64,000 bases of DNA from an uncultured virus (IMG/VR IMGVR_UViG_3300030372_003518) (IMGVR_UViG_3300030372_003518); one strand, 5' to 3'. Shown: positions 2,891 through 18,309, counted from the first letter of the stretch. Numbers and translations: made by a program. Notes: a model not told the origin generated them from the sequence alone.

Positions 2891-3042
2891 TATAATTTTG
2901 TAAATATCTCTACGTGTTCCACCTCACATTTTTTATTTACACATGAGTAGTTCCCTACTATCCCTTCACCCTCTATTCCTATTTCATCGTACATGTGTTC
3001 TCCGCCCCATAGCAATTCTATTTCACACATTGGGCATATCAT
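2890..3042 (-). CDS. small zinc-ribbon protein
   Basis: Hand-translated 50 aa MICPMCEIELLWGG...YSCVNKKC; overlaps both neighbours. Confidence 0.6.
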   Translation of the reverse strand: MICPMCEIELLWGGEHMYDEIGIEGEGIVGNYSCVNKKCEVEHVEIFTKL

Positions 3043-4640
3043 TGGCTATCGTATGTTCTGGCCATAGTCACTATAGCGTTAGTAGATAATATTGTCACGG
3101 CTACACTCACTGCATTTTGCAGAGCCTCTTTTGTTACTTTTAAAGGGTCTATTACTCCAAGCTCATATAGGTCTCCATACTCTCCGGTTTTTATGTCCAT
3201 TCCCTGATTATCATTTAGCATACTTAAAGTTGGCCTTATAAAGTCTGTCCCTGCATTGCGATAGATTTGCAATAAGGGTTCTTGAAGGGCTTGGCCTAAA
3301 ATCGCTTTAGCGATTTTTTTTGAATTTTTTTTCTCCAATAGTTTAACGCCCTCTCTATACAGCGCAAGTCCTCCGCCAGGAAGTATACCTTCCTCTAGGG
3401 CGGAACGAACTGCGCATACTGCGTCATCTACTCTGTCGAATAATTCTTTTTGTTCAAGGTCTGTATTTCCTCCAACATATATTACACCCACACCTCCTGT
3501 GAGTGAGGCGATGCGGGATAGGATAAAGTCAGAGTCTGCTTTTGTCTTGGCTAAAGAAACCGACTCTTTTAATTGACCTACCCTTTCTTTTATTTTCTCA
3601 TCATCTACACTCTGGGTATCTTTTAATATAATAGTAGAGTCTTTCCCTACAATTATTTTTTTTGCTTTACCTAAATCAGCAAAGTTTATTATACTCAAAT
3701 CATCTCCTGTCTTTTCTGAAAAATATGTAGCACCAACTGACAGAGCTAAGTCTTGCATCAGTTCGTGTTGCTTATAGCCAAAGGAGGGTGGTGTTATGGC
3801 ACAAAGTTTCAAACTGTTCTTCATCACATTCGCCGCAAGGGTGTTTATGACATTTGGAGAACAGGGCGCTACAATTAATAATTTTTTACCCTCGTTTATA
3901 ATTGGTTTTAATACATTCTCTATTGTAAGTATATTGTTTATATCAGCATCAGCTACCAGCACATGAACATCCTCTAGTATACACTCATCTTTTTTCTGGT
4001 CATTAATAAAAAGAGGAGAATAATACCCTCTGTCTATTTTTAGTCCGTGTGTTGTTTCAAAACTTGTCTCACTGCTTTGAGACTTTTCTACAGTAACCAG
4101 TCCATTTTTCCCAACCTTTTTATATGTCTGAGCAATTATCTCTCCGGTCTTCACATCATTATTAGCAGATATAGTCGCTACATCTATAAGTTTACTCTGA
4201 GTTACTTTTTTACTTTTCTTTTTTAAATTCTCCACCACCCCAGTGGTAAGCTCTACTAAATCACGAAGCACCTGAGTTTTGTTTTCTACATATCCAAGCT
4301 CTTCCATACCTTTATTTACTAAAGCCTCAGTTAAAACTATAGCGGTAGTTGTTCCATCGCCTGCATTAGCTGCTGTACGAGATGCTGCTTCTCGCATAAT
4401 TTGAACAGCTAGATTTTCTACAGGGTCTAAAAGTTGAATTGATTTAGCAACAGTCACTCCATCTTTGGTAACTGTTATTCCATGAGTATGCTGGGGGGAC
4501 TCTATAAGAACAGTATTTCCCATAGGCCCAAGCGTTGACTTGACTGCCTCTGACATTTTCGATATACCTTCTGTGAGTTTTTCTTGCCCTTTTTCTTTAA
4601 AGTGCAAATCTTTCGGTGAGTACCCTCCGGTTGGTTGCAT
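3039..4640 (-). CDS. groEL: chaperonin GroEL
   Basis: TLGPMG, TKDGVTVAK, GDGTTTA, GILPGGG and GVIDPLKV motifs; probable ATG at 4640; no C-terminal GGM tail. Confidence 0.97.
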   Translation of the reverse strand: MQPTGGYSPKDLHFKEKGQEKLTEGISKMSEAVKSTLGPMGNTVLIESPQHTHGITVTKDGVTVAKSIQLLDPVENLAVQIMREAASRTAANAGDGTTTAIVLTEALVNKGMEELGYVENKTQVLRDLVELTTGVVENLKKKSKKVTQSKLIDVATISANNDVKTGEIIAQTYKKVGKNGLVTVEKSQSSETSFETTHGLKIDRGYYSPLFINDQKKDECILEDVHVLVADADINNILTIENVLKPIINEGKKLLIVAPCSPNVINTLAANVMKNSLKLCAITPPSFGYKQHELMQDLALSVGATYFSEKTGDDLSIINFADLGKAKKIIVGKDSTIILKDTQSVDDEKIKERVGQLKESVSLAKTKADSDFILSRIASLTGGVGVIYVGGNTDLEQKELFDRVDDAVCAVRSALEEGILPGGGLALYREGVKLLEKKNSKKIAKAILGQALQEPLLQIYRNAGTDFIRPTLSMLNDNQGMDIKTGEYGDLYELGVIDPLKVTKEALQNAVSVAVTILSTNAIVTMARTYDSQ

Positions 4641-4692
4641 TTGATTTAATTTTCTCAAATATATAAATTTATTTTTTATCTACCTTTACGTT

Positions 4693-5067
4693 ATGAAAAA
4701 ACTTTTAACAATACTACTTATAACACTTGCCTCATGTGGTACATACCAAGGGGGTAATTTCCACACTTATGACGGTATTTATTATAGCAATACCGATAAA
4801 TTAGATTCTTTACAAAAAAAAGTTATTAGAATTAGATACTATCCTGTATATATTTATAGAACTAACCCTTATTATAATTACTACCAGCCATATAGATACT
4901 GGGGTGATTATGGCTATTACTCAGGAACTTACACCCCATCTCATAGGAGCAATTCTAATAGAGGCAGTGTGAGTCCTCGTACTACTCCTTCTACACCTAG
5001 CGCTACGCCTAGCTCTTCGAGCCCTAGCAGCTCTGGCAGCAAGAGTAAAGGAGGTAAAATACAGTAA
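4693..5067 (+). CDS. lipoprotein with Tyr-rich and Ser/Pro-rich tail
   Basis: MKKLLTILLITLASC lipobox; TACCTTTA promoter-like element 4 nt upstream of ATG. Confidence 0.75.
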   Translation: MKKLLTILLITLASCGTYQGGNFHTYDGIYYSNTDKLDSLQKKVIRIRYYPVYIYRTNPYYNYYQPYRYWGDYGYYSGTYTPSHRSNSNRGSVSPRTTPSTPSATPSSSSPSSSGSKSKGGKIQ

Positions 5068-5270
5068 TGTCGAAATGTCGACTTTTTAATTTCTATATGG
5101 GGGAAATAAAAAAACTTTTTTTTATTTTTTTTTTCTTCTACAAACTACTCTTAAACTTGACATCTTGACATAAAGTATATAAAATAATAGTTAAATAACT
5201 GAAAATTAGAAGATTAAGTTTATGTCGACTTTTTTTCAACTCGACATGAGGTCGACGCAGAACGTCGACT
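5067..5270. repeat. iteron-like ATGTC(G/A)A repeats around an AT/poly-T tract (candidate origin)
   Basis: ATGTCGA 5067; ATGTCGAC 5075 and 5222; CTTGACAT 5156 and 5164; CTCGACAT 5240; GTCGAC 5251 and 5264. Confidence 0.5.
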
Positions 5271-5296
5271 TTTGTTGTTTTTGATTATAAAAGACA

Positions 5297-5322
5297 AAAG
5301 CTACCCTCTAAGGAGTAGCTTT
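5297..5322 (-). terminator. intrinsic terminator
   Basis: AAAGCTAC/GTAGCTTT hairpin with a U-run on the minus strand after ORF 5355-5543. Confidence 0.6.
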
Positions 5323-5354
5323 ATCCAACTATAACCAACTAAAAATATGAATAA

Positions 5355-5543
5355 TCAATCCATAAATCTTTCAAGCATTTTAGCCCTTCTTATACCTTCG
5401 GCTATCTGCTCTATATTTTCTTGCCTTTTTACCATCTTTCTAATCTCAGCTGCTCTTTCAAGTCCGCTTCTCGAATCAGGCCTGTCGTTTATTAGTCTCC
5501 CGTCCTTGACGTATAGACCGTTTACAAAATCACTTTTTGCCAT
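5355..5543 (-). CDS. hypothetical protein
   Basis: 62 aa, followed by a terminator. Confidence 0.7.
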   Translation of the reverse strand: MAKSDFVNGLYVKDGRLINDRPDSRSGLERAAEIRKMVKRQENIEQIAEGIRRAKMLERFMD

Positions 5544-5544
5544 A

Positions 5545-5688
5545 TTACCAATATTTAATTACTATGCTTATGAGTCCTGCGAATAATGTGAACTCGACCC
5601 AGTCATGCTCATCGTCTTTTCCGTAGTATTGAAACCCAAGTGCGAATCCTACTTTGATTCGATTTTGTATTTCAATCTCATAAGACAT
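5545..5688 (-). CDS. small hypothetical protein (probably leaderless)
   Basis: Hand-translated 47 aa MSYEIEIQNR...IVIKYW; TAACTTTG 4 nt upstream of ATG. Confidence 0.6.
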   Translation of the reverse strand: MSYEIEIQNRIKVGFALGFQYYGKDDEHDWVEFTLFAGLISIVIKYW

Positions 5689-5692
5689 ATTG

Positions 5693-5700
5693 CAAAGTTA
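5693..5700 (-). promoter_or_regulatory. Bacteroidota -7 promoter element (TAnnTTTG)
   Basis: TAACTTTG. The same motif precedes minus-strand genes at 515, 1836, 32478, 34316, 39781, 46462, 46846, 50452 and 56218. Confidence 0.7.
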
Positions 5701-6085
5701 CAAAAAAATATTAGATATTCAGAGTGTTTGGATAATATACGCATATACGCAGGACGACCCAACAAAAAAAGTGGAAAAAAAATCAGACGGGGGGGGTAAT
5801 TTTTTTGAACGGACAAGCAACATTTTTGGCGTTTTTTAGGTTGTTTAAACAGCCCCCTTAGTAGTTTGTTTAAACGAAGCGGGGTAAGAGCTTTGAGCTT
5901 ATCAGTTAGGCACGCCTAACCTTGCCCCCGTTTAAACCCCTCATCTCCGCCCCAAAGAAAAATAAAGCTCGGGGACAACTCATCTATAACTCATTGAACA
6001 CTAGCAAACAAAGGCAAAACTAACTCAAAACCTTATTTAGAATTAATCTAAATTAGCATTATCTTAAAAATATCCTAAGAATATC

Positions 6086-6116
6086 TTGCGATTGTCAATT
6101 TATCTTTGTAGCTTAC
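6086..6116 (+). promoter_or_regulatory. early promoter (host sigma70, Bacteroidota type)
   Basis: TATCTTTG at 6101-6108, or TTG-N20-TAGCTTAC; lies just before the structured leader and ribozyme array. Confidence 0.55.
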
Positions 6117-6120
6117 GAAG

Positions 6121-6345
6121 TAATTGGAGAAAAGGTCAACTCCATCGGAAAAGCAAAAGACCCGTAAAATACCGAATGAAGCGAGCAGATGATGATGAAC
6201 TTTGACATAGAGAGTTTAAACACTCTCAAAGTGAATTCAGCAACGGGGTAAAAGCTCGTTCAAAAAATGCTACAAAAACAAAGCAACGAAGTAGGGAAAC
6301 TGAAAAGCCCTTTCGATGATTAGCAAATTCACTTACTTAATCAAA
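6121..6345 (+). ncRNA. unassigned multi-stem, pseudoknotted RNA
   Basis: TGGAG/CTCCA, TGAAGCGAGC/GCTCGTTCA, CTTTGA/TCAAAG, GAGAG/CTCTC, CCCGT/ACGGG, AAGTGAATT/AATTCACTT; no ORF in the track. Confidence 0.5.
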
Positions 6346-6361
6346 CATAATTTTTTAGTTA

Positions 6362-6440
6362 ACTCGTCAGGGCGAGTATAAAATAGAGTATTAAGCCCTG
6401 AGCGTTAGCTGATAAAATTTATTTTGTCGGCTATCTTACT
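6362..6440 (+). ncRNA. pistol ribozyme 1 (non-canonical cleavage site)
   Basis: P1 ACTCG/CGAGT; pseudoknot TCAGGG/CCCTGA; TTAAG and GCGT core; P2 AGTA/TACT; 13-bp P3; TCT in place of GGT at the scissile junction. Confidence 0.8.
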
Positions 6441-6459
6441 AACAACTAAAAATTAAATT

Positions 6460-6771
6460 ATGGAAAATGTAATAAAATTTGACCTTAACAAAATGGGGTC
6501 ATCAGATATTCAAAGTATGAACAAAGTTATTAACGCTTACATACAAATTGAGCCGATAAATTATAACTTTTATGGCATTTCAGAAACGGGTTTTAATGAA
6601 AATTCGGGCTATGTTTATATAGCATTAGAAAATCAAATTTCAATATGTTCAGCGTTTAATAATGAAGTTGAATATCTAGTTACAAATTTTGACAATGGCG
6701 AAGAGTTTTTCTTTGAAACTTACGAAGAAGCTAAAGCCAAAAATTTAAAGGTTAATGACATAAGTTATTAA
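6460..6771 (+). CDS. early hypothetical protein
   Basis: 103 aa with an A-rich TIR. Confidence 0.8.
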   Translation: MENVIKFDLNKMGSSDIQSMNKVINAYIQIEPINYNFYGISETGFNENSGYVYIALENQISICSAFNNEVEYLVTNFDNGEEFFFETYEEAKAKNLKVNDISY

Positions 6772-6773
6772 TC

Positions 6774-6840
6774 AATCGTTAGGGCGATTTCAAACAGAGT
6801 ATTAAGCCCTAAGCGTCCCCGATTATCTCGGGGGGTTACT
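6774..6840 (+). ncRNA. pistol ribozyme 2
   Basis: AATCG-TTAGGG-CGATT...AGTA-TTAAG-CCCTAA-GCGT-P3-GGT-TACT, same architecture as the env25 pistol; predicted cut 6835/6836. Confidence 0.93.
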
Positions 6841-6860
6841 ATAACTAAAAATTAAAAATT

Positions 6861-7004
6861 ATGGATATTTTACAAAATTGTAAACCTCAGGGAACATACG
6901 AAAGCTGGAAAAATTGGCTAGCTGATTGTTATAATAAAAATGACTTTTTAGCGACTCATTTTCCTGAGGAATTTAAACTTGACAATGCAAGTATAAAAAG
7001 ATAA
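6861..7004 (+). CDS. small early protein (47 aa); 3' end overlaps pistol 3
   Basis: Hand-translated MDILQNCKPQ...DNASIKR; conserved leader ACTAAAAATTAAAAATTATG. Confidence 0.7.
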   Translation: MDILQNCKPQGTYESWKNWLADCYNKNDFLATHFPEEFKLDNASIKR

Positions 7005-7050
7005 TTAAGCATTGAGCGTTCAGCCCCGTTTAAACGGGGTTGAGGTTTAT
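6977..7050 (+). ncRNA. pistol ribozyme 3
   Basis: P1 ACTTG/CAAGT; pseudoknot CAATG/CATTG; P2 ATAA/TTAT; core TTAAG, GCGT, GGT; predicted cut 7045/7046. Confidence 0.9.
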
Positions 7051-7069
7051 ATAACTAAAAATTAAAATT

Positions 7070-7678
7070 ATGAAAAAATCTAAATTTAGTCGAGAAGATT
7101 ATTTAATTAAAGCGTCTGACATTATGAGGGATTATTTGTTTAAACCTAAGGGCTATAAAGTGCCAAAGGTTGAGCTTTCAGTTTCTTGGGCTACAAGTGG
7201 AAATAGAGCGAGAAACAAAAGCGGGCAAACCTTAGGTATGTGCTTTAATAAAGCGTCAAGCAAAAAGGGAATAAATCAAATCATTATTACCCCTAGCTTA
7301 GACGGGGAAACAATTAAAGGCACGCTTAGAATTTTAGATGTCCTAGCTCACGAACTAGTCCACGCAGTTGACGATTTAAAATCAGGACATAAAAAAGCGT
7401 TCAAAGATTGTGCAACGGCAATAGGTCTAATCGGTCAAATGAGAAGCACCAAAGCGAGCAAAGAATTAAATGAGTGGCTACGCAAAAATATCGTAGATAA
7501 GCTCGGGAAATTTCCGCACGCAGAGGTTACACTTTCAGGTAAAAAGCAAACCACTAGAAACATAAAAGTTTCTTGTGATTGTTGCGACTTTTCTTTTCGC
7601 ACCTCACGAACAAATATAAATACAATTGAAAATTGGGATTGTTTGGCGTGCGATGACGGGAGACTCGATGAATGCTAA
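7070..7678 (+). CDS. SprT-like zinc metalloprotease with C-terminal zinc ribbon
   Basis: LAHELVH HExxH motif, GHKKAFK, and CxxC...CxxC. Confidence 0.8.
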   Translation: MKKSKFSREDYLIKASDIMRDYLFKPKGYKVPKVELSVSWATSGNRARNKSGQTLGMCFNKASSKKGINQIIITPSLDGETIKGTLRILDVLAHELVHAVDDLKSGHKKAFKDCATAIGLIGQMRSTKASKELNEWLRKNIVDKLGKFPHAEVTLSGKKQTTRNIKVSCDCCDFSFRTSRTNINTIENWDCLACDDGRLDEC

Positions 7679-7679
7679 A

Positions 7680-7749
7680 ACTTGTTTGGGCAAGTATAAA
7701 AAGAAATTAAGCCCAAAGCGTCCGAGTTGTTTAAACGACTCGGGGTTTT
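7680..7749 (+). ncRNA. pistol ribozyme 4
   Basis: ACTTG/CAAGT; TTTGGG/CCCAAA; TTAAG; GCGT; P3 with GTTTAAAC; GGT; predicted cut 7745/7746. Confidence 0.9.
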
Positions 7750-7770
7750 ACTAACTAAAAATTAAAAATT

Positions 7771-7863
7771 ATGAAAAACTTTATTGAAGTAGTCGAGAAG
7801 ATTACTCCGTATATTTTAATAGTCATATTCTTATGGTTTATGTTTATGTTTATAACTCTCTGA
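7771..7863 (+). CDS. 30-aa hydrophobic membrane peptide
   Basis: MKNFIEVVEKITPYILIVIFLWFMFMFITL behind the conserved leader. Confidence 0.65.
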   Translation: MKNFIEVVEKITPYILIVIFLWFMFMFITL

Positions 7864-7970
7864 TTATGTATCGGGAGAGGTGGCACGGGTGGACTCAAAA
7901 GAAAGCCCAAATAAAGACAAGAGAGTGGGTTAAATCACTCTCTGACGCTGACGCCAAGCGTTTGAATATT
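7855..7970 (+). ncRNA. unassigned structured RNA in a ribozyme slot
   Basis: GGGT/GCCC, AGAGAGTGG/TCACTCTCT and ACGCT/AGCGT stems; possible pseudoknots TGGC/GCCA and TCAA/TTGA. Confidence 0.5.
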
Positions 7971-8001
7971 AATAAAGAATTAACTATTAAAAAATTAAAA
8001 A

Positions 8002-8211
8002 ATGAGTAAATCAAATTCAGAAATTTCGCAGTTTGGCGGGAAAGTATATACTGAAAAAAATACTACCCCTCAACAAAGACAATATATAATCCGAAAATAC
8101 GCACATCAACATTGTAAAGAGTTTAAAATCGAATTGCGTAAGGGTTATGACTTTGCCGAGACAATTACGCCAAACGGCACACGGGGAATTTCAATTAAAA
8201 AAGTAAAATAA
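8002..8211 (+). CDS. early hypothetical protein
   Basis: 69 aa with an A-rich TIR. Confidence 0.75.
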   Translation: MSKSNSEISQFGGKVYTEKNTTPQQRQYIIRKYAHQHCKEFKIELRKGYDFAETITPNGTRGISIKKVK

Positions 8212-8384
8212 TGGATAAATTTATAATCAATAAATATGTATTTGAAGCAATCGAGCATTTAGAAAGTATTGAAACACAAGAATGCGAAGAAACTGAAAAT
8301 TCAATTTACAAAGCTGAAAAGCTATTGGAGAAAATTCATTTAGAGTTATTTCCAAATCGTTTGAGCGATTCAAAACCACATTAA
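8211..8384 (+). CDS. small early protein (57 aa); 3' end overlaps pistol 5
   Basis: Hand-translated MDKFIINKYV...RLSDSKPH; TAATG coupling to the upstream ORF. Confidence 0.7.
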   Translation: MDKFIINKYVFEAIEHLESIETQECEETENSIYKAEKLLEKIHLELFPNRLSDSKPH

Positions 8385-8423
8385 GCTCAAAGCGTCCACT
8401 CTGTTTAAACAGGGTGGGGTTGT
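8355..8423 (+). ncRNA. pistol ribozyme 5
   Basis: AATCG/CGATT; TTTGAG/CTCAAA; P2 ACA/TGT; core intact; predicted cut 8419/8420. Confidence 0.9.
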
Positions 8424-8444
8424 TTAACTTTAAAAACTAAAATT

Positions 8445-8612
8445 ATGAACGATTTGTTATCACAAGATAAATTTGATGAGTATGTTGCCGTGCAAAAGAG
8501 TGGACTTTATAATATGTTCGACCCTAATGCTAGAGCAATGACAAGTTTATCTAAAGACGAATGGGTGCATATTATACGCAATTACAATGCGTATGACAAA
8601 GCATACTCATAA
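8445..8612 (+). CDS. small early protein (55 aa), DUF5049-like
   Basis: Hand-translated; VQKSGLYNMFD resembles the DUF5049 motif as recalled. Confidence 0.65.
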   Translation: MNDLLSQDKFDEYVAVQKSGLYNMFDPNARAMTSLSKDEWVHIIRNYNAYDKAYS

Positions 8613-8685
8613 GTGGACTATGCCACTCTAAAGAGACATTAAGCATAGAGCGTAAAGGGGGTGTTTAAACATCTCCTTTGGTTGT
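8612..8685 (+). ncRNA. pistol ribozyme 6
   Basis: AGTGG/CCACT; CTATG/CATAG; ACA/TGT; core intact; predicted cut 8681/8682. Confidence 0.9.
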
Positions 8686-8705
8686 ATAACTAAAAATTAA
8701 AAATT

Positions 8706-9155
8706 ATGAAAATCACTTACAATAAAGAGGAAAAACTTCAGTTAATACGCTATCTTTTTTGCACTAATCACGACTATTTTAGAGAGAATTATTTGCTCTT
8801 AGATTGGAACGAAAAAGATTATAAAGCAAGCAAAACTCGTAAAGACAAAAGTTACGAAGACACTCTTTTAAATATGCTCAAAAATGGGTATGAAATAATC
8901 TTACAAGATGATTATGTCCCTGAAGACGAAGAGGGCGAAATTGTTGCTCGATTTAATCTCAAAGAATTGTTTAATAATCTTGATAATCCTCAAATTGATG
9001 ACAATTATTACTCCTCACTAGAAAGTTTTAGTGATGAATTATTATCAGTAATGCTTAGCATAAATAAGGATTATGATACTAATTGGGATTCGGTAACAAT
9101 GACACGAATTGCGTCCGTTCTCTTTTATCACGAAAATACTTGGACACGAAAGTAA
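8706..9155 (+). CDS. early hypothetical protein
   Basis: 149 aa; stop codon lies inside hammerhead stem I. Confidence 0.8.
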   Translation: MKITYNKEEKLQLIRYLFCTNHDYFRENYLLLDWNEKDYKASKTRKDKSYEDTLLNMLKNGYEIILQDDYVPEDEEGEIVARFNLKELFNNLDNPQIDDNYYSSLESFSDELLSVMLSINKDYDTNWDSVTMTRIASVLFYHENTWTRK

Positions 9156-9218
9156 ATCTGATGAGGTCTTATAGACCGAAACTAGAGGGCGTTTAAACAA
9201 TGCCCCTAGTCATTTACT
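9151..9218 (+). ncRNA. hammerhead ribozyme 1 (type I)
   Basis: AGTAAAT-CTGATGA-GGTC/GACC-GAAA-stem III-GTC-ATTTACT; predicted cut after C9211. Confidence 0.95.
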
Positions 9219-9235
9219 AACTTAAAACTAAAATT

Positions 9236-9418
9236 ATGACAAATTTACAAATAACATTTACTCAAGAAGAGCTTGAAAACTTACGGCATTTACTTATGAC
9301 AATAGAAATGTTGGGTGCATTACCTAAAAGTATTCTTGATAAATACGATTTAGACGGGGATAAAATTAGTAGTATATCTACCGCTATAAATAATCAAATT
9401 ATATATTGTGTAAAGTAA
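9236..9418 (+). CDS. early hypothetical protein
   Basis: 60 aa between hammerheads. Confidence 0.75.
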   Translation: MTNLQITFTQEELENLRHLLMTIEMLGALPKSILDKYDLDGDKISSISTAINNQIIYCVK

Positions 9419-9488
9419 ATCTGATGAGACCTATAATACATAGAAAGGTCGAAACGGGGAAGTTGTTTAAACAACCCCGTCATTTACT
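9414..9488 (+). ncRNA. hammerhead ribozyme 2 (type I)
   Basis: CTGATGA-GACCT/AGGTC-GAAA-CGGGG/CCCCG-TC; stem I AGTAAAT/ATTTACT; predicted cut after C9481. Confidence 0.95.
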
Positions 9489-9505
9489 AACTAAAAATTA
9501 AAATT

Positions 9506-9619
9506 ATGACAAAATCTGAACAATTTGATTTCTTTCATACTATGCTTCAATATATTGAAGACCAAGCGTATGACGGGTGTGAAATAGCTAAAGAATTAAG
9601 TGAGAGATACTACAAGTAA
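9506..9619 (+). CDS. small early protein (37 aa)
   Basis: Hand-translated MTKSEQFDFF...SERYYK; conserved leader. Confidence 0.7.
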   Translation: MTKSEQFDFFHTMLQYIEDQAYDGCEIAKELSERYYK

Positions 9620-9682
9620 ATCTGATGAGTCCTAGTGGGACGAAAATAAGAGAGCGTTTAAACATTCTCTTATTCATTTACT
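9615..9682 (+). ncRNA. hammerhead ribozyme 3 (type I)
   Basis: CTGATGA-GTCC/GGAC-GAAA-stem III-TTC; predicted cut after C9675. Confidence 0.95.
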
Positions 9683-9702
9683 AATAACTAAAAACTAAAA
9701 TT

Positions 9703-9972
9703 ATGGAAGATTATATAAAATTTGGGTTTGAAACCCAAAAAGAGTGGGACGCTCTCTCTGATATAGAAAAAAGAGATGAAGCGTATGAATATTACCTAGA
9801 TAGAAGTTTGTATGATTTAGGAGATAACGGCTTACTAGAGGGTTGGTATCAAGATATTCACGACGCTATGTCAAGAAATTCTGTCCCCGAAGAAATTAAA
9901 CAAAGAGTATTTCAAACAATTGATTCGGGACACGGAATAGGCAAAGGCAGTTTCACTCGTAAACAATTCTAA
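9703..9972 (+). CDS. early hypothetical protein
   Basis: 89 aa. Confidence 0.8.
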   Translation: MEDYIKFGFETQKEWDALSDIEKRDEAYEYYLDRSLYDLGDNGLLEGWYQDIHDAMSRNSVPEEIKQRVFQTIDSGHGIGKGSFTRKQF

Positions 9973-10035
9973 GTAAATCTGATGAGTCTTTATGAGACGA
10001 AAGGGAGAATGTTTAAACATTCTCCCTCATTTACT
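9972..10035 (+). ncRNA. hammerhead ribozyme 4 (type I)
   Basis: CTGATGA-GTCT/AGAC-GAAA-GGGAGAATGTTTAAACATTCTCCC-TC; predicted cut after C10028. Confidence 0.95.
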
Positions 10036-10052
10036 AACTTAAAACTAAAATT

Positions 10053-10373
10053 ATGAATAAATCAAATATATATATTAAAGAACAAATAGTAACCACAAAG
10101 CTAATCGGAAAGGTTGGCGTAGATAGTGGGACAATTTGGATAGGCGACCCTTGTTACATTTTATCAGGTGAAAGACCAAAAGCACTCGGTAAAGATTGGA
10201 GTGAATTAGGTCATAAAACATTTAAGGACGGCAAGTGTCAACTACCTATATCATTTAACTTTGATATGGGACACGAAGGACTCGGTGTTATGAGTTCTAC
10301 CAAATATGGAGACGGGGTATATCCCGTATATATGGTTGGAGATAATGACGGAATGTATATAGATTTCACTTAA
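10053..10373 (+). CDS. DUF4241-like protein
   Basis: VGVDSGTIWIGDPCY and YGDGVYPVY motifs. Confidence 0.65.
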   Translation: MNKSNIYIKEQIVTTKLIGKVGVDSGTIWIGDPCYILSGERPKALGKDWSELGHKTFKDGKCQLPISFNFDMGHEGLGVMSSTKYGDGVYPVYMVGDNDGMYIDFT

Positions 10374-10392
10374 TAAATCATTATTTGAAAGA

Positions 10393-10467
10393 AAGTCGTC
10401 TGCACGACTTTAAAGAGACATTAGGTGCAGAGCGTAGAGAGAGTGTTTAAACATTCTCTCTGGTTGT
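10393..10467 (+). ncRNA. pistol ribozyme 7
   Basis: AAGTCG/CGACTT; TCTGCA/TGCAGA; TTAGG (A32G variant); GCGT; GGT; ACA/TGT; predicted cut 10463/10464. Confidence 0.9.
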
Positions 10468-10486
10468 TTAACTTAAAACTATAATT

Positions 10487-10792
10487 ATGAAAATAAATAA
10501 CGAAAAAATAGAAAAAATACATATAAAATCAATTGAAGCCGAGCCACTTATTAAGAGGTTTCAACAAGAAGAAATTGAAAATGAAAGTTTACTGCAAAGT
10601 TTTGATGAGGAGTTATGCGACCTTATGGAAAAATATATAGATGTAAACCACAAGTATAGAGATTGTATGCCCTTTTTTGATGATAAGGATATTGTTGAGG
10701 ATTTTAATTATGCCTTAAACATATTACAAAGATTAATAAAAGAAACTTATAAAAAAGGGGTCATTAAAGAAGATACCATATTAGGAGAATAA
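10487..10792 (+). CDS. early hypothetical protein
   Basis: 101 aa. Confidence 0.8.
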   Translation: MKINNEKIEKIHIKSIEAEPLIKRFQQEEIENESLLQSFDEELCDLMEKYIDVNHKYRDCMPFFDDKDIVEDFNYALNILQRLIKETYKKGVIKEDTILGE

Positions 10793-10808
10793 TTTAAAAG
10801 TAAATAAA

Positions 10809-10871
10809 GTAATTCTGATGAGGATTCAATATCCGAAAATAAGGGTTGTTTAAACGCCCTTATTAAATTAC
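10809..10871 (+). ncRNA. hammerhead ribozyme 5 (type I)
   Basis: GTAATT/AATTAC stem I (compensatory change relative to HH1-4); CTGATGA-GGAT/ATCC-GAAA; TTA triplet; predicted cut after A10865. Confidence 0.92.
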
Positions 10872-10889
10872 AAACTTAAAACTATAATT

Positions 10890-11273
10890 ATGAAAAATGA
10901 TTTTAATAGCACGGACTCAACAACAAATGTTGCCGTGCTAGAGGACAAAAAATGGGTTATGCTCGGACAAGAGGATACCGATTTTGATAGCTCAGCTACC
11001 TACGGAGATAAAAACACTTTGGTATGTGATAAATTAGATACCGAAGACGGATACGAAGTATGGTGGTTGCACACTTACGATAAGAATGACATTGAGCCTG
11101 ACGAAATGTTGAGCGATGAGCATTCTTATATGGAAGAAGTAGAGGATTGTTTAAAAGAAATGACTGACCGATACGGACAAGCTATAAATAAAGTTATCAA
11201 TTACACGATTGAGGTAGATGACTTTAAAGAAATGGTCAACCAAGCTAATGAGATATTAGCAGAGGTTGATTAA
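10890..11273 (+). CDS. highly acidic early protein
   Basis: 127 aa, D/E-rich. Confidence 0.8.
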   Translation: MKNDFNSTDSTTNVAVLEDKKWVMLGQEDTDFDSSATYGDKNTLVCDKLDTEDGYEVWWLHTYDKNDIEPDEMLSDEHSYMEEVEDCLKEMTDRYGQAINKVINYTIEVDDFKEMVNQANEILAEVD

Positions 11274-11292
11274 TTTTTAGTTTATAAGTGAG

Positions 11293-11329
11293 AAAAGAGG
11301 GGGTGTTTAAACATCTCCTCTTTTTTTTT
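11293..11329 (+). terminator. intrinsic terminator closing the ribozyme operon
   Basis: AAAAGAGGGGGTGTTTAAACATCTCCTC followed by 9 T. Confidence 0.85.
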
Positions 11330-11362
11330 GTCTAAAAATTAGGAATATTAAAATATTATCAC

Positions 11363-11370
11363 TAGATTTA
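11363..11370 (+). promoter_or_regulatory. putative -7 promoter element
   Basis: TAGATTTA(C) after the terminator; preceded by AAATATTATC, as is the element at 15108. Confidence 0.45.
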
Positions 11371-11396
11371 CAAAAGTTAATCAAAATAATAACTAA

Positions 11397-11588
11397 ATGT
11401 TCATTGAAATGCTGAGACTAATAAGAGGAAAGATTAAAAGGGTGTTTGCCAAAAGGGAAATATCTTATGCCTAATTAACATAATACGCTTTCAGTGGGTT
11501 GCAACAATAAAATTAGGGACGCCTTTAATAAAATGTAATTCGCTTCACAACATAAACGGGTAACGCCGTCTTATTAGTTTCGGTTTTT
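11397..11588 (+). ncRNA. structured RNA/leader overlapping a 25-aa ORF (11397-11474)
   Basis: 16-bp closing stem 11411-11426/11569-11584; CCTAATT/AATTAGG; pseudoknot CATTGAAA/TTTCAGTG. Confidence 0.55.
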
Positions 11589-11603
11589 CATTAAAAATAA
11601 AAT

Positions 11604-12164
11604 ATGAAAAAAATATTATATCACGGGACAAGCACAAAGTATCTTGACAAGATATTAAAGAAAGGACTGACCCCTCGCAAGAGTTTGGGTGTTAAGTCTA
11701 ATTGGGACGCAGAGTCAAGAGACGATATGATTTATTTAACGAGTGCATACGCACCTTACTTTGCACAAGCGTGTGTGGGGTCGAATGGTGGAGACCCGCT
11801 CGTATTAGAAGTCGAAGTAGAGAGCGACAACCTCTACCCTGACGAAGATTTCTTAGAACAATACTTACGCAATAAACATATTACTAAGGGAGATATATAT
11901 GAGAGAACAAAGTTTTATAAAGATAACTTGGAAGTGTTTAAACACTATACTAAAAAGAGTTTAAACGGACTCGGTAATGCGTGTCATAAAGGAATTATAG
12001 ACCCAAAAAGAATACGAAGATATGTAGTGTTGGACGCTAGTAAGATAATAATGTATAGCGACCCGACAATAACAAGAGCGAACTATATGTTACTTGGACA
12101 TCATTACAACGAGATATGTAGCGAGTATATATGGAACACTAAAGAAGTCCAATTAAATAAATAA
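11604..12164 (+). CDS. ADP-ribosyltransferase-fold protein (Tpt1/KptA NAD-binding-lobe-like)
   Basis: LYHGTS...ILKKGLTP...IYLTS...PLVLEV motifs. Confidence 0.65.
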   Translation: MKKILYHGTSTKYLDKILKKGLTPRKSLGVKSNWDAESRDDMIYLTSAYAPYFAQACVGSNGGDPLVLEVEVESDNLYPDEDFLEQYLRNKHITKGDIYERTKFYKDNLEVFKHYTKKSLNGLGNACHKGIIDPKRIRRYVVLDASKIIMYSDPTITRANYMLLGHHYNEICSEYIWNTKEVQLNK

Positions 12165-12175
12165 AATATGTAGCT

Positions 12176-12328
12176 ATGCAGATTGATTTAAAAGAAGTAA
12201 TTCAAAAGCTCAGAGACCTAAGAGACAACACTCCGTGTGTAGAGGATTCTCATACGCATTGTGGGTGTGAGAAATTTGATGAAATAATAGATGACTTAAT
12301 AAGAATACATTATGCAGATAAATTCTAA
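12176..12328 (+). CDS. small hypothetical protein (50 aa)
   Basis: Hand-translated MQIDLKEVIQ...HYADKF with Cys/His residues. Confidence 0.5.
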   Translation: MQIDLKEVIQKLRDLRDNTPCVEDSHTHCGCEKFDEIIDDLIRIHYADKF

Positions 12329-12494
12329 ACAAATAAAAAAGATAGTAAAGGAGATAGAGCGTTTAAACGCTCTCCCGATAAATCTTGTTGACTCTCCAAA
12401 GAGAGAAGTCAGGAAGATTGACAACCTATACTCTATGCAAGTATGGGCAATGGAAGAATTGTGGAAAGCATTAGAGATTAATAAAAATAAATAA
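12312..12494 (+). CDS. hypothetical protein
   Basis: 60 aa, on the operon strand. Confidence 0.55.
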   Translation: MQINSKQIKKIVKEIERLNALPINLVDSPKREVRKIDNLYSMQVWAMEELWKALEINKNK

Positions 12495-12604
12495 TGGGAA
12501 AAGGTAAGCAAAGGCACGAGACTAAAAGGGCGATACGCTTAACTTGGGGTAACCGAATCGTTGACACTCAAGACTTTTTCCTTTTTTAAAAAACAACTAA
12601 AACT

Positions 12605-12871
12605 ATGGAAAACTTAATAAAAAAACTAGATAAATGTAATACTAAAATTCAGTTTAGAATTATGTGCGACCAAAAAGATTATAAAAAATATCTTGAAGAT
12701 ACTGATGTATATTACAACATACACCCACAAGAATTAATTGATTTAAACTCTACCTTAGAAATATTAGACAAAAATAATGTTAACTACGATTTGGTATTAG
12801 AGAGATTTATTGAGGACAAACAAGACATTCAATACGATTGGATAGAAGAAAGAAATAACCTAAACAACTAA
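12605..12871 (+). CDS. hypothetical protein
   Basis: AACAACTAAAACTATG leader. Confidence 0.8.
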   Translation: MENLIKKLDKCNTKIQFRIMCDQKDYKKYLEDTDVYYNIHPQELIDLNSTLEILDKNNVNYDLVLERFIEDKQDIQYDWIEERNNLNN

Positions 12872-12875
12872 AACT

Positions 12876-13052
12876 ATGGAAAAATTAACAAAGGAACAAG
12901 TATTCAAATATGCAATGTGGGTATATCACGAATGCGATAGCCCTATATCTGAAATAGAATGGTTGGCTCAACAAATACTTGACACCCACAATGATAAAAA
13001 AGTAATCATACAAGATTTTACTGAAAATGTAAACGAATTATTAAACAACTAA
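12876..13052 (+). CDS. hypothetical protein (58 aa)
   Basis: Hand-translated MEKLTKEQVF...NELLNN; same leader. Confidence 0.75.
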   Translation: MEKLTKEQVFKYAMWVYHECDSPISEIEWLAQQILDTHNDKKVIIQDFTENVNELLNN

Positions 13053-13056
13053 AACT

Positions 13057-13269
13057 ATGGGAAAAAAACAAATTAAATATGCAATATATTTTAACTATCA
13101 AAAAGCGTGTTGGGGGACTGCACCAAGACAATTTGAAGCAATAACTAACAACCCTGAGAAGTGGTTAGAGGAGCATAATGAAAGCCGAATAGCTGAAGGA
13201 AATGAAGCTGAAGAATTATGGATGTTCGACATAGAAGAAGTAGGGGCAGAATATATTTATAAAGATTAA
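13057..13269 (+). CDS. hypothetical protein
   Basis: 70 aa; same leader. Confidence 0.8.
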   Translation: MGKKQIKYAIYFNYQKACWGTAPRQFEAITNNPEKWLEEHNESRIAEGNEAEELWMFDIEEVGAEYIYKD

Positions 13270-13273
13270 AACT

Positions 13274-13468
13274 ATGGAACAAAAAGTATATATAATAGAT
13301 GTAAGTTATGATGATTTTCAATTTCCTGACTTAAAAGCAAGCGGGTCATTAGAGGAGTTTATGGACATAGCGGAAAGTCAGGGGAATGTGTATTCACTTA
13401 ATGGATTCGCTAAAGCATTTAACGAGGGAAGAATAAACTCCCACACCGATATAATAAGAATAATTTAA
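13274..13468 (+). CDS. hypothetical protein
   Basis: 64 aa; TAAAACTATG junction. Confidence 0.8.
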   Translation: MEQKVYIIDVSYDDFQFPDLKASGSLEEFMDIAESQGNVYSLNGFAKAFNEGRINSHTDIIRII

Positions 13469-13480
13469 ACAACTAAAACT

Positions 13481-13636
13481 ATGGAATTAAAACAAACTGA
13501 TGAAGAACAATATTATGAAAACAATGTTTATAATATTATGTATTTAATACGAGATGTATTAACTCACGAAGATATAATTGAAATTAAAAAATTCATTGAT
13601 GACCAAATTGAAGAAAGAGATATACAACCCTTTTAA
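13481..13636 (+). CDS. hypothetical protein, paralogue A
   Basis: Hand-translated MELKQTDEEQYYENNVYNIMYLIRDVLT... (51 aa). Confidence 0.75.
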   Translation: MELKQTDEEQYYENNVYNIMYLIRDVLTHEDIIEIKKFIDDQIEERDIQPF

Positions 13637-13646
13637 AACTAAAACT

Positions 13647-13859
13647 ATGAAGCTAAATAAATATATAAAAGAACAAGCACAAGAGTTTAATCAACTTTTT
13701 GAAAAAAATAAAGAAGATTGTTTGGTTGATTACATTGTAGATATTGCAACTGAAATAGCAAGTATAAATGACTTATATGATTCACAAGAAGAATGGTTAA
13801 GTGATGAAAATAGAAGAAAAGCGTATGATAAAGCATACGAAATAATTGATATAAACTAA
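13647..13859 (+). CDS. hypothetical protein
   Basis: Start reassigned to the ATG after AACTAAAACT. Confidence 0.75.
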   Translation: MKLNKYIKEQAQEFNQLFEKNKEDCLVDYIVDIATEIASINDLYDSQEEWLSDENRRKAYDKAYEIIDIN

Positions 13860-13863
13860 AACT

Positions 13864-14070
13864 ATGAATGCAAATAAATTAAAAAAGTTTCTTTTAGATT
13901 TAGAAAAAGAAATTAAACCTTATAACAGAACATTAAAAGATGTAGATGTTAATTTCAGATACTCTGAAAATTCAGATGTTTATAAAGTCAATTCAATAGA
14001 GAATGATTTATATGATTCAGAATATAATAAAATAGTAGAAAGCATAATATTTAAACACTTAAACAATTAA
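13864..14070 (+). CDS. hypothetical protein
   Basis: 68 aa; same junction motif. Confidence 0.75.
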   Translation: MNANKLKKFLLDLEKEIKPYNRTLKDVDVNFRYSENSDVYKVNSIENDLYDSEYNKIVESIIFKHLNN

Positions 14071-14074
14071 AACT

Positions 14075-14239
14075 ATGGAACTAAAACAAACTGATGAAGA
14101 ACAATTTATTGAGAATAGTATTTTCAATATTCACTATTTAATACGAGATGTATTAACATACAAACAACTCTTAGGTATAAGAGATTTTTTAAATGAAATT
14201 ATTGATGAAAAAGTCAGTAATGGATATACTGAAAACTAA
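14075..14239 (+). CDS. hypothetical protein, paralogue B
   Basis: Hand-translated MELKQTDEEQFIENSIFNIHYLIRDVLT... (54 aa). Confidence 0.75.
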   Translation: MELKQTDEEQFIENSIFNIHYLIRDVLTYKQLLGIRDFLNEIIDEKVSNGYTEN

Positions 14240-14243
14240 AGCT

Positions 14244-14402
14244 ATGGAAGAAAAACACGCAATTAGGATATTAGATGAGGCATATAGTAGTGTTATGTCT
14301 TTGGTCAGAAGTGATGATGACCACGAAACTATTAATCTAATACAACCAATCCTAGACAAGATTGATGAGATTCAAAACGATATAGAAAACCTAAACAACT
14401 AA
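14244..14402 (+). CDS. hypothetical protein
   Basis: Start reassigned to MEEKHAIR after AACTAAAGCT. Confidence 0.7.
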   Translation: MEEKHAIRILDEAYSSVMSLVRSDDDHETINLIQPILDKIDEIQNDIENLNN

Positions 14403-14406
14403 AACT

Positions 14407-14577
14407 ATGAAACAAAAAAGAATAGATAATTGGGGGGTGTTTGTGGAAAACGAACAACTAGAAACTTATGAAATAAGATTACCCCAAAAGTTAGCCCAAA
14501 AGGTGTGGGACTTTATAGAGAACTCCGATAAACACGATTTAATAGGAGAGAATACAAATGGAAACTTAAATTGGTAA
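14407..14577 (+). CDS. hypothetical protein (56 aa)
   Basis: Hand-translated; conserved leader. Confidence 0.7.
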   Translation: MKQKRIDNWGVFVENEQLETYEIRLPQKLAQKVWDFIENSDKHDLIGENTNGNLNW

Positions 14578-14581
14578 AACT

Positions 14582-14746
14582 ATGGAAATAAAAAAATATT
14601 CAAGAAAGTATTACGAGTATATAGAGAAAAAAATACTACCAAATGAAGATGTTAAAGTGCAACTTCAATATTATAATGGAGAAATCGGTTATGATGAAGA
14701 TTATGTAAAGGAACATTTAGAGAACAATAACATAAAATTAATTTAA
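14582..14746 (+). CDS. hypothetical protein (54 aa)
   Basis: Hand-translated; TAAAACTATG junction. Confidence 0.7.
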   Translation: MEIKKYSRKYYEYIEKKILPNEDVKVQLQYYNGEIGYDEDYVKEHLENNNIKLI

Positions 14747-14749
14747 ACT

Positions 14750-15046
14750 ATGGAACGACACGACTACGAATTAAAACAAAGAGAGGATAGCCAATACGAA
14801 GTAAAAGCTGAAAGTGTTTGTGCAACAAAATTTACTGCCAACATACTCTTTGAATACAAAGGAAAAGAATATATGGCATGGGGAATACTTGAATGGGGCG
14901 GAGAACTAGGCGATAGCTATGGAGTGGACTTAGTTAACGGGGGAGAGGTCAATGAAAGCAACCCGTTATTTGACACTCTGCACGAGATTTCTTTAGATTT
15001 GCTAGAGAATTTCAAGATTACAAGAGAGAATTTAGAGTGGGAATAG
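14750..15046 (+). CDS. hypothetical protein
   Basis: 98 aa. Confidence 0.8.
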   Translation: MERHDYELKQREDSQYEVKAESVCATKFTANILFEYKGKEYMAWGILEWGGELGDSYGVDLVNGGEVNESNPLFDTLHEISLDLLENFKITRENLEWE

Positions 15047-15107
15047 TGTTTAAACATACTCTAAATAATTAATGGATTAAATATTTTTTTTTACCAAATA
15101 TTATCCA

Positions 15108-15115
15108 TACATTTG
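15108..15115 (+). promoter_or_regulatory. -7 promoter element for the replication module
   Basis: TACATTTG in intergenic DNA. Confidence 0.6.
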
Positions 15116-15225
15116 CATATTAAAAGAATATAGAGGTTGTTGAGTCCTAACTCTCCTTTAGGGGATATGAAAACATAATTTAGAAATTAATAGGATTTCT
15201 ACCCCTCTTTTTTAAAAAATTAATA

Positions 15226-15408
15226 ATGAATTGCAAGAATTGTGAAAGTAAAAACCTAGAGACACTCCAAGATGACTATAAAGGAGAGTATGCGGTTATT
15301 ACCTATCAATGTTTAGATTGCAATTATAAAACAACCAACTATTATGACATTAAATATACCAATACTCACGCCTTTTATAAAGAGCATAAAGAGGAAAGGG
15401 TCGCATAG
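15226..15408 (+). CDS. zinc-ribbon protein
   Basis: CKNC...CLDC. Confidence 0.65.
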   Translation: MNCKNCESKNLETLQDDYKGEYAVITYQCLDCNYKTTNYYDIKYTNTHAFYKEHKEERVA

Positions 15409-15646
15409 AAAATTTATTTCCGACCGCACTTATGAGATACATAATAATATCGTCCGCTCATTACTCTCGATAAATTTAGACACCCCAATCGAAGTCCAAC
15501 GAAATTTAAGAAGACGCAAAGGGGAAAAAAATAAGTTTATAATTTGCAAAATATCAGAGGAAGATTTACATTTACTTACCGAGACTAAAAGCAAAATGAA
15601 GCTAGTCAAAAAATATAGGAGAAGATTAATTTTACTTAACACTTAG
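15344..15646 (+). CDS. basic hypothetical protein
   Basis: 100 aa; overlaps the previous ORF. Confidence 0.5.
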   Translation: MTLNIPILTPFIKSIKRKGSHRKFISDRTYEIHNNIVRSLLSINLDTPIEVQRNLRRRKGEKNKFIICKISEEDLHLLTETKSKMKLVKKYRRRLILLNT

Positions 15647-15648
15647 AT

Positions 15649-15819
15649 ATGGAAGGAATAATGGCAGAAGTATATCGACATGAAATTGGGGCTTTACGCA
15701 AAAGATGTGATGAGGTCTTAAAAGAATTAGAGATAATCCAAGAGGATTCTTTAAACTTAACCTCTAAACAAAAAGAGGTTTTAGAAAAAGCAATTAACTT
15801 ACTAAAAGAAACACAATGA
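15649..15819 (+). CDS. hypothetical protein (56 aa)
   Basis: Hand-translated MEGIMAEVYR...LLKETQ; ATGA overlap with the next ORF. Confidence 0.65.
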   Translation: MEGIMAEVYRHEIGALRKRCDEVLKELEIIQEDSLNLTSKQKEVLEKAINLLKETQ

Positions 15820-16118
15820 AAAATTATATATTCAAACAATACGCTGACAATATATGTGAGCATTTAGATATAGACACGGAAGAATTGTTTGCTAGAACGA
15901 AAAAACCGCAGGTAGTAGAGGGGAGACAGCTCTTATATTTTCTTTGTAATATAAAAAGACAAATGGGATTAACTGAGATTTCTTCTTACGCAGAGAAGTT
16001 AGGGTTAAATGAGGACGCAAGTAATGTGCGAAGAGCAATAGAAAAAGTAAAGGAGAAACTAAGTGATGACCCTGACTATGTATATATTATAAAGAAACTT
16101 GAAGAAATCCAATTATAA
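15816..16118 (+). CDS. DnaA domain IV-like HTH protein
   Basis: ARTKKPQVVEGRQLLYFLC...LTEI...DASNVRRAIEKV resembles Bac_DnaA_C. Confidence 0.6.
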   Translation: MKNYIFKQYADNICEHLDIDTEELFARTKKPQVVEGRQLLYFLCNIKRQMGLTEISSYAEKLGLNEDASNVRRAIEKVKEKLSDDPDYVYIIKKLEEIQL

Positions 16119-16500: not shown

Positions 16501-16521
16501 ACAACAACTAAAACTATAATT

Positions 16522-17956: not shown

Positions 17957-17971
17957 CATAAATTAATAACA

Positions 17972-18232: not shown

Positions 18233-18246
18233 TTTTTAGTTTAACT

Positions 18247-18300: not shown

Positions 18301-18309
18301 TATTTATCA

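Follow-up and report, generated by a model that had tools for sequence, protein, structure and literature searches.

Why should a phage place twelve self-cleaving ribozymes of two unrelated folds between its genes, each predicted to cut at nearly the same distance from the next start codon? The question is raised by positions 6,362 to 11,273 of a 64,000-nucleotide (nt) stretch of DNA from an uncultured virus (IMG/VR IMGVR_UViG_3300030372_003518), referred to here as the window, in which 12 ribozyme units, seven pistols (P1 to P7) and five type I hammerheads (HH1 to HH5), are arranged around 15 open reading frames (ORFs). The function of many bacterial and phage self-cleaving ribozymes is still open (PMC6765202; here and below, papers are cited for the excerpts that bear on the point). 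We propose, at a probability of roughly 60% for the explanation taken as a whole, that the array opens the early operon of an uncultured phage of flavobacterial type that carries groEL, and that its ribozymes divide the early transcript into single-gene mRNAs, with every gap between genes serving as one cassette. The strongest new fact is that the two ribozyme classes are exchanged ahead of the same gene. A preliminary description of the sequence had concluded from the 12 distances in the window that the products of cleavage are under selection; this conclusion is partly right, and needs comparative evidence rather than the window values.

Class exchange and reshuffling in the close family

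The close family was assembled from 48 metagenome and 19 viral loci detected with a window-type hammerhead pattern, 55 of these 67 loci carrying elements. The non-redundant set holds 160 elements, namely 84 pistols with a G^U cleavage site, six non-G pistols and 70 hammerheads, and four elements without a start within 40 nt were left out of the averages. The RNA between the cut and the start codon, referred to as the leader, measures 24.96 ± 1.05 nt behind pistols (n = 81) and 25.14 ± 2.19 nt behind hammerheads (n = 69), the latter average including a separate hammerhead-only group at 19–29 nt. Among the 41 gene families seen in at least two loci, 13 stand behind both classes, with leaders of 23–28 nt. 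When pistols and hammerheads were paired within the 41 mixed loci, of which two are the window's own strain, subtracting hammerhead from pistol gave -0.31 nt for the leader (p = 0.11) and +0.93 nt for the distance from the helix end to the ATG (p = 4e-6), a comparison in which the loci are related and the effect amounts to about 1 nt. The paired test leans toward the product end being what is held, and this class-independent distance in relatives is the part of the earlier argument for selection on the products that stands.

Gene content is reshuffled at the same cassettes. Across the family loci, 51 gene families occur in changing order, and alignment breaks cluster at cassettes (22 of 29, against 27% expected). 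A related-strain contig joins position 9209 to 10027 over the 30 nt that are identical in HH1 and HH4 across cut and leader, losing three ORFs, and hybrid pistols are found in L004 and L005. The related-strain contigs also contain one backward joint, from 10044 to 8378, which is no proof of excised mini-circles.

Such joints could mean that the cassettes persist chiefly because their DNA repeats allow modules to be exchanged, as in the PeSL cassettes of T4-type phages (PMC2839356), with cleavage slow or incidental and the spacing being the length of the copied unit. The break points, the HH1/HH4 joint, the hybrid pistols and the shifting gene order would all suit this explanation, as would the uncut RNA contigs described below and the word GTTTAAAC, of which the cassettes would be the carriers. 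This word is present in 29 copies in the window (2.7 expected), 19 of them within 5800–12400 (0.3 expected), and copies spanning 5843–12368 include the last loop of 10 of the 12 ribozymes and of the probable terminator behind the array. Six other loci, which were fetched for having at least one copy (L005, L253, L281, L001, L006, L009), contain 12–26 copies, mostly outside hairpins in four of them, while L157, L039, L159 and the cultured phage Gundel_1 contain none or one. The word looks like a DNA site set in free loop positions. Nevertheless, a primary role as repeated DNA appears quite improbable to us, since the catalytic cores are invariant while the stems covary, which would be needless for a mere homology patch, and since like spacing is seen in single-copy ribozymes and in arrays free of the word (Gundel_1, L157, L039). 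An integron-like attC reading of the word was rejected, as it sits in loops and no integrase was found among 30 proteins scanned.

Identity and folds of the ribozymes

All seven window pistols reach the gathering score of Rfam RF02679 (38.2–67.8 bits against 34.5). Stem P1 forms five of five pairs in all seven, the pseudoknot five or six of six and stem P2 three or four of four, and the conserved UUA(A/G)G and AGCG core is present in each. The cleavage site is G^U in six of them and C^U in pistol P1, where position 6435 is G in contigs of three related-strain runs and C in L616; A^U and U^U variants make up 6 of the 90 pistols of the close family.

The hammerheads were identified by descriptor and folding, with CUGANGA, GAAA and UH as the core criterion, following the methods of PMC3088659. 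In all five, the CUGAUGA/GAAA/UH cores are intact and three stems are formed, with stem I open. The Rfam type I model RF00163 matched HH2 only, at 27.8 bits and below the cut-off of 34, and gave no match for the other four, so that hammerhead membership rests on the descriptor and on covariation, not on the Rfam score. In an alignment of eight hammerheads (five from the window, three from L004), 97.3% of the cells pair, and stem II has two-sided changes in three of four pairs, with a covariation score that none of 500 shuffles reached. Judged by eye, the aligned hammerheads show no obvious common pairing for a tertiary contact between stems I and II, of the kind that fast cleavage at low Mg2+ requires. 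A third ribozyme class was not detected with Rfam in window positions 5000–25000 or in 13 array loci (L188 being left out for its size). The cut sites are unmapped and were predicted from family geometry. Folding assigns both classes a hairpin of -8.8 to -17.2 kcal/mol that is left on the upstream RNA, which agrees with the preliminary description, in which the ribozyme body stays behind as a structured 3' end.

Leaders within the window

In genomic order, the leaders measure 24, 25, 24, 25, 25 and 24 nt for P1 to P6, 24, 24, 27 and 24 nt for HH1 to HH4, 23 nt for P7 and 24 nt for HH5, identical to the distances listed before; 1.4% of the operon positions lie 23–27 nt ahead of a start. The leaders had also been described as unstructured, A-rich and free of a Shine-Dalgarno (SD) sequence, fitting initiation in Bacteroidota, and this was confirmed. 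The minimum free energy is 0 to -0.3 kcal/mol for 11 leaders (P1 left out) and 0 to -2.0 kcal/mol for the 12 leaders with 20 nt of coding sequence, an SD sequence is found in none of the 12, and A occupies positions -3, -6, -12 and -13 in 12, 11, 12 and 7 of them. In Flavobacterium johnsoniae, start regions have little structure from -20 to +20, and A at -3, -6, -12 and -13 is favourable (PMC6847099).

Each leader consists of 5 nt (pistol) or 6–7 nt (hammerhead) of ribozyme helix followed by 17–20 nt of a repeated start region; its initial 5–7 nt are base-paired within the ribozyme until the products separate. The likeness is 0.78 between pistol and hammerhead leaders and 0.75 among pistol leaders; it falls to 0.54 when they are compared with leaders of their own class in other phages, and is about 0.6 against 18 starts of the same genome that have no ribozyme. 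The 12 lengths are not independent, because identity between a pistol and a hammerhead leader reaches 22 nt (P7 with HH5, and P3 with HH2). The leaders have been homogenised across the classes, and therefore an independent convergence of two folds, the other part of the earlier argument, is not arguable from the window alone.

Spacing in other viruses

Pattern scans provided at least 455 viral loci, one scan contributing 80 of 546. Among the loci listed, 195 non-redundant ribozymes outside the window passed the descriptor (83 pistols and 112 hammerheads); one of the patterns gave 119 loci, among which true pistols were rare (L253 and the L094/L281 contig). The cut lies 23–27 nt ahead of a start in 23.6% of the 195 ribozymes, compared with 3.4% of random positions. 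For the comparison by SD status, the 45 ribozymes without a start within 50 nt were left out. The status was assigned by a regular expression that stands in for host type, not for a known host, because of 21 pistols that passed the descriptor in 121 genome loci with taxon labels only one was labelled Bacteroidota.

Without an SD sequence, the median leader length is 25 nt for pistols (n = 30) and for hammerheads (n = 42) alike; SD-bearing leaders are longer, with a median of 33.5 nt (n = 78; p = 1.4e-7) and, per locus, 34 against 24 nt (p = 4e-5). Five of 90 SD-less cases are below 20 nt, 48 at 20–28 nt, 19 at 29–50 nt and 18 beyond. Leader length is also phage-specific, ranging from 20–21 to 26–29 nt (analysis of variance, 13 loci, 46 elements, p = 8e-6), and in L157 (21 against 31 nt), L417 and L038 a small inserted hairpin lengthens the leader by its own size. 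A single leader length common to all, as had been suggested, is thus not upheld. In pooled SD-less phages (23 pistols, 29 hammerheads), the class difference has p = 0.42 for the cut-to-ATG distance and p = 0.034 for the helix end.

Three cultured flavobacterial phages have the same geometry. In Gundel_1 a pistol lies 24 nt ahead of gp006, in phi19:3 a pistol lies 23 nt ahead of gp045 and a hammerhead 34 nt ahead of gp050, and in elemoB a hammerhead lies 28 nt ahead of an in-frame ATG. The corresponding 5' ends would be at 2638 in Gundel_1, 20373 and 21774 in phi19:3 and 17218 in elemoB. In the elemoB region NC_062741.1 17190-17264, the annotated start of gp69 (17232) falls inside this hammerhead, and translation more likely begins at the in-frame ATG at 17190. 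The spacing of about 24 nt is real beyond the window genome.

Of 150 leaders in other phages, 39 allow the ribozyme strand, once freed, to fold back into a hairpin at the 5' end (26 in shuffles, with a maximum of 35), with examples in L332, L046, L038, L049 and L125. Such refolding is possibly a switch for product release, and a closer natural match to the synthetic insulator RiboJ than the window itself.

Proposed processing of the early transcript

What the sequences show are the folds, the distances, the interchangeability and the reshuffling at cassettes; cleavage in vivo, release of the products and any effect on translation or half-life are deduced. A transcript of about 5.2 kb would be divided into a 5' RNA, 11 single-gene mRNAs and one four-gene mRNA, of 194–700 nt. 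The predicted fragments of 6113-11330 measure, in order, 323, 400, 210, 700, 674, 262, 530, 270, 194, 353, 435, 402 and 465 nt. Each intergenic gap would form one cassette, composed of a ribozyme whose cut lies at its 3' border and of an A-rich initiation region. There is little spare sequence upstream, as 9 of 11 ribozymes begin at most 2 nt from, or overlap, the upstream stop or ORF; of 117 hammerheads, 101 have a nearby upstream ORF, whose stop lies in stem I in 57 cases and at the core UGA in 18 more. Cleavage would provide the upstream mRNA with a 3' hairpin and the downstream mRNA with a 5'-hydroxyl (5'-OH) end and a bare leader, the predicted cut being just beyond the low-structure zone from -20 to +20 that SD-blind Bacteroidota ribosomes would need. 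This single-stranded zone may set a floor of about 20 nt for the leader, near which genome compaction would hold the length, and recombination among cassettes would even it within a phage. Pistol and hammerhead could be regarded as interchangeable parts for one job. After cleavage the products are held together by 4 base pairs (bp) in pistols and by 6–7 A/U-rich bp in hammerheads (-3.4 kcal/mol for HH1, -1.8 kcal/mol for HH5), and the downstream piece should leave easily, perhaps aided by the terminating ribosome. The likely gain would be translation and decay of each gene's message irrespective of the neighbouring genes, so that cassettes could reshuffle without retuning.

A wider proposal is made tentatively, with chances that we put short of even. 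In what would be a widespread family of marine flavobacterial phages, the early region may be a ribozyme-punctuated gene library, in which the cassette is both the crossover site and the maker of a context-free mRNA, either ribozyme class can stand in for the other, the ribosome that terminates upstream may open stem I and so free the following mRNA, and non-coding RNAs are released from some slots.

Several observations weigh against processing into single-gene mRNAs. One RNA run yielded three contigs, and both of those within the array bridge a pistol cut (7691-7860 and 8635-8798); these contigs show no cleavage and may be DNA carry-over or uncut precursor, the uncovered parts of the run are uninformative, and the chance of a 170-nt uncut piece spanning a site is 0.26. 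L159, with a groEL 78% identical and the same early region and start-region type, is ribozyme-free there over 10 kb and pistol-free over the whole record, and contains a homologue of an L005 cassette gene without a ribozyme. Pistols are present in two of five close viral records and in two of five GenBank relatives, three of each being without them, and four family contigs (L604, L605, L632, L614) contain a pistol but no ORF starting with ATG within 200 nt of it. In unrelated SD-less phages taken per locus, the leader and helix-end comparisons give p = 0.79 and p = 0.16 (16 loci each), so that there the two candidates for the conserved quantity are indistinguishable. Finally, a twister ribozyme cleaving in the 5' untranslated region (5'-UTR) of an Escherichia coli reporter left stability and protein level unchanged (PMC5052635).

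The preliminary description had gone further and regarded the ribozymes as natural RiboJ-like insulators, which would imply sharp selection on one product length, with stability as the main gain through 5'-OH ends that escape 5'-monophosphate-dependent decay. In line with this, the cut-to-ATG distance matches between the classes better than the helix-end distance, both in the 41 mixed loci and in the pooled SD-less phages, and of 41 genomes in the same family as a Polaribacter genome, none had an RNase J match above the cut-off and all had one for RNase E/G. The preference of RNase E/G for monophosphate ends is assumed for Flavobacteriaceae from E. coli. RiboJ doubled transcript levels in E. 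coli (PMC6206723), and a stable 5'-OH end is plausible in the host group, the RNase J result being permissive and no proof; in Bacillus subtilis, RNase J1 destroys the 5'-OH product of the glmS ribozyme (PMC3328962). However, the leaders are homogenised across the classes and the first bases of pistol and hammerhead products are nearly identical and in register, and therefore the length match can be given by descent, while lengths vary with phage, SD status and inserted hairpins. The likeness to RiboJ is loose, because the window leaders are without its 5' hairpin, and the host is deduced from terminase relatives only. We consider this explanation unlikely.

Cleavage might instead shorten mRNA life or damp read-through, which would uncouple potentially toxic early genes and allow a fast switch-off, and the stem P3 hairpins with their U-rich tails may partly terminate transcription. 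Four pistol P3 hairpins are terminator-like in a terminator scan, that of pistol P6 shares 22 nt with the probable terminator behind the array, bare A/U-rich 5' ends without hairpins would be poor barriers, and glmS is a precedent for decay after cleavage. On the other hand, no RNase J was found in the sampled host family, the leaders have strong initiation signals and the hammerheads have no U tract past the hairpin, and we give this alternative little credence.

The array and its genomic setting

The window is the genome of a tailed phage, with groEL, Sak, helicase, primase, portal and TerL in a protein family scan. All 87 TerL relatives among annotated phages belong to Flavobacterium, Cellulophaga, Tenacibaculum or Maribacter phages or to one unassigned record; on this basis the host is probably a flavobacterium. 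A marine metatranscriptome is among the best sequencing-run matches to the window, and annotated phages include no close DNA relative (best matches of 41–46 nt). An assembly artefact was ruled out, because stretches of 5.1 and 3.0 kb of the window are matched at 99.9% by two metagenome contigs (L636 and L627). The array is the start of the early arm on the + strand, on which all the elements below are located, and the groEL arm runs divergently, with the phage groEL at 3039-4658 and a TTG start.

A Bacteroidota-type -7 promoter element, TATCTTTG (6101..6108), matches the TAHHTTTG of PMC6847099 and would place the transcription start near 6113. Within the array, TAHHTTTG occurs on the + strand at 6101, 8468 and 10256 only, the latter two inside ORFs, and a sigma-70 promoter scan gave 25 sites against 26.9 expected. 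The first cut would free an ORF-free 5' RNA of about 323 nt (6113..6435). This region contains a GTTTAAAC hairpin at 6214, and in related strains 6268-6345 is swapped for 115 other letters.

Pistol P1 (6362..6440, cut 6435^6436, Rfam 38.2 bits) precedes an ORF of 103 amino acids (aa) without a family (6460..6771), and P2 (6774..6840, cut 6835^6836, 65.8 bits) a 47-aa ORF (6861..7004), whose 3' end passes through stem P1 of pistol P3. Related strains have 77 extra letters, about one cassette, at 6856-6860, just 5' of the ATG at 6861. P3 (6977..7050, cut 7045^7046, 55.1 bits) is followed by a 202-aa ORF (7070..7678), weakly SprT-like below the Pfam cut-off, which is the most frequent gene in the family's arrays and stands behind a pistol in 35 of 35 copies. 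Behind P4 (7680..7750, cut 7745^7746, 67.8 bits), four ORFs (7771-7863, 7866-8009, 8002-8211 and 8211-8384) would remain on one uncut fragment (7771..8384), the start at 7866 being deduced from the L005 homologue. P5 (8355..8424, cut 8419^8420, 58.2 bits) precedes a 55-aa ORF without a family (8445..8612), and P6 (8612..8686, cut 8681^8682, 54.6 bits) a 149-aa ORF (8706..9155).

The stop codon of this 149-aa ORF lies within stem I of HH1 (9151..9218, GUC, cut 9211^9212). In the same manner, the 60-aa ORF behind HH1 (9236..9418) stops within stem I of HH2 (9414..9488, GUC, cut 9481^9482), and the 37-aa ORF behind HH2 (9506..9619) within stem I of HH3 (9615..9682, UUC, cut 9675^9676). HH3 is followed by an 89-aa ORF (9703..9972), which in relatives stands behind either class, and HH4 (9972..10035, CUC, cut 10028^10029) by a 106-aa ORF (10053..10373) assigned to phrog_5209, with a weak DUF4241 match. 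P7 (10394..10468, cut 10463^10464, 53.6 bits) precedes a 101-aa ORF without a family (10487..10792). In the four contigs L604, L605, L632 and L614, a P7-like pistol is followed by about 200 nt free of ATG-started ORFs, where a non-coding RNA may be released or translation may begin at a codon other than AUG, and a loose end is found at window position 10478 in one sequencing run. HH5 (10809..10871, UUA, cut 10865^10866) stands before a 127-aa ORF (10890..11273), which in relatives is also found behind either class. In total, 13 of 15 scanned array proteins are without a PHROG family.

The array probably ends at an intrinsic terminator (11295..11329), a hairpin of -15.7 kcal/mol leading into a T tract that has no entry in the terminator scan. 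Directly past it, an ORF at 11604-12164 has a weak PARP/RNA 2'-phosphotransferase-like match below the cut-off, and in related strains the sequence is replaced after 11612. Positions 12605-14750 contain about 11 short ribozyme-free ORFs with a common 13-nt start region, those at 13481 and 14075 being paralogues.

Comparison with known systems

The early polycistronic mRNA of phage T7 is cut between genes by RNase III, resulting in shorter mRNAs with 3' hairpins. There, a host protein makes the cut and leaves 5'-monophosphate ends, whereas in the window cleavage would be protein-free and leave 5'-OH ends. RiboJ resembles the window in that self-cleavage strips the upstream sequence and gives a standard 5' end ahead of the ribosome site, but it is a synthetic part that operates together with an SD sequence and keeps a 5' hairpin of 23 nt on its product (PMC6206723). 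The window leaders have neither hairpin nor SD sequence, and what lies upstream of the cut is an mRNA in its own right. The PeSL of RB49 and phi1 are likewise repeated intergenic expression cassettes among small, non-essential early genes that are shuffled by recombination (PMC2839356). The break points in repeated cassettes correspond to this kind of module exchange; each PeSL, however, is a promoter plus a terminator, whereas one promoter is deduced for the whole window array and its cassettes would act by RNA cleavage. Ribozymes also drive translation from the 5'-UTRs of fungal RNA viruses (PMC13725137), and theta ribozymes of gut phages flank tRNAs (PMC10879173).

If the tentative gene-library proposal is true, it would be the counterpart at the RNA level of integron or PeSL cassettes and would give phage pistols a concrete function. 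The family is a natural experiment in which two unrelated catalysts are exchanged ahead of the same genes and cut about 25 nt from the start. Since the geometry is also found in cultured phages with cultured hosts (Gundel_1, phi19:3, elemoB), the processing idea is directly testable. For Bacteroidota, with ribosomes that are blind to SD sequences, the cassettes could also supply insulators and leaders ready for use, and they suggest a route for the turnover of small genes in phage early regions.

The closest precedents are the ribozymes of other phages. Pistols were found near phage genes, and processing of polycistronic RNA was suggested, with the purpose left open (PMC6154101, PMC6765202). 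The window pistols have the same fold, in six of the seven a cut site of the G53-U54 type, and the same link to phage genes; the published ones are mostly from Firmicutes, and the excerpts of these two papers describe no arrays, spacing or mixing with hammerheads, all three of which are seen in the window. Perreault and colleagues (2011; PMC3088659) reported hammerhead clusters that flank variable genes in prophages and phages and cleave in vitro and in E. coli, proposed that single-gene mRNAs result, and described a halovirus hammerhead 13 nt ahead of an early start codon, matching a mapped 5' end. As in those clusters, the window ribozymes enclose one gene or a few at a time, and which genes these are varies. 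Three hammerhead clusters were tested in that work, and its excerpts state no spacing rule, whereas the window has 12 units of two classes with narrow spacing, class exchange and cassette-bounded reshuffling. Mixed pistol-hammerhead arrays or a spacing rule were not found in the mainly non-subscription literature covered, and the original pistol and twister discovery papers and their supplements may list such arrays. Ribozyme clusters between phage genes are thus known since the work of Perreault and colleagues, and what appears new here, within the literature covered, is the mixed, interchangeable array at a nearly constant distance from the start codon.

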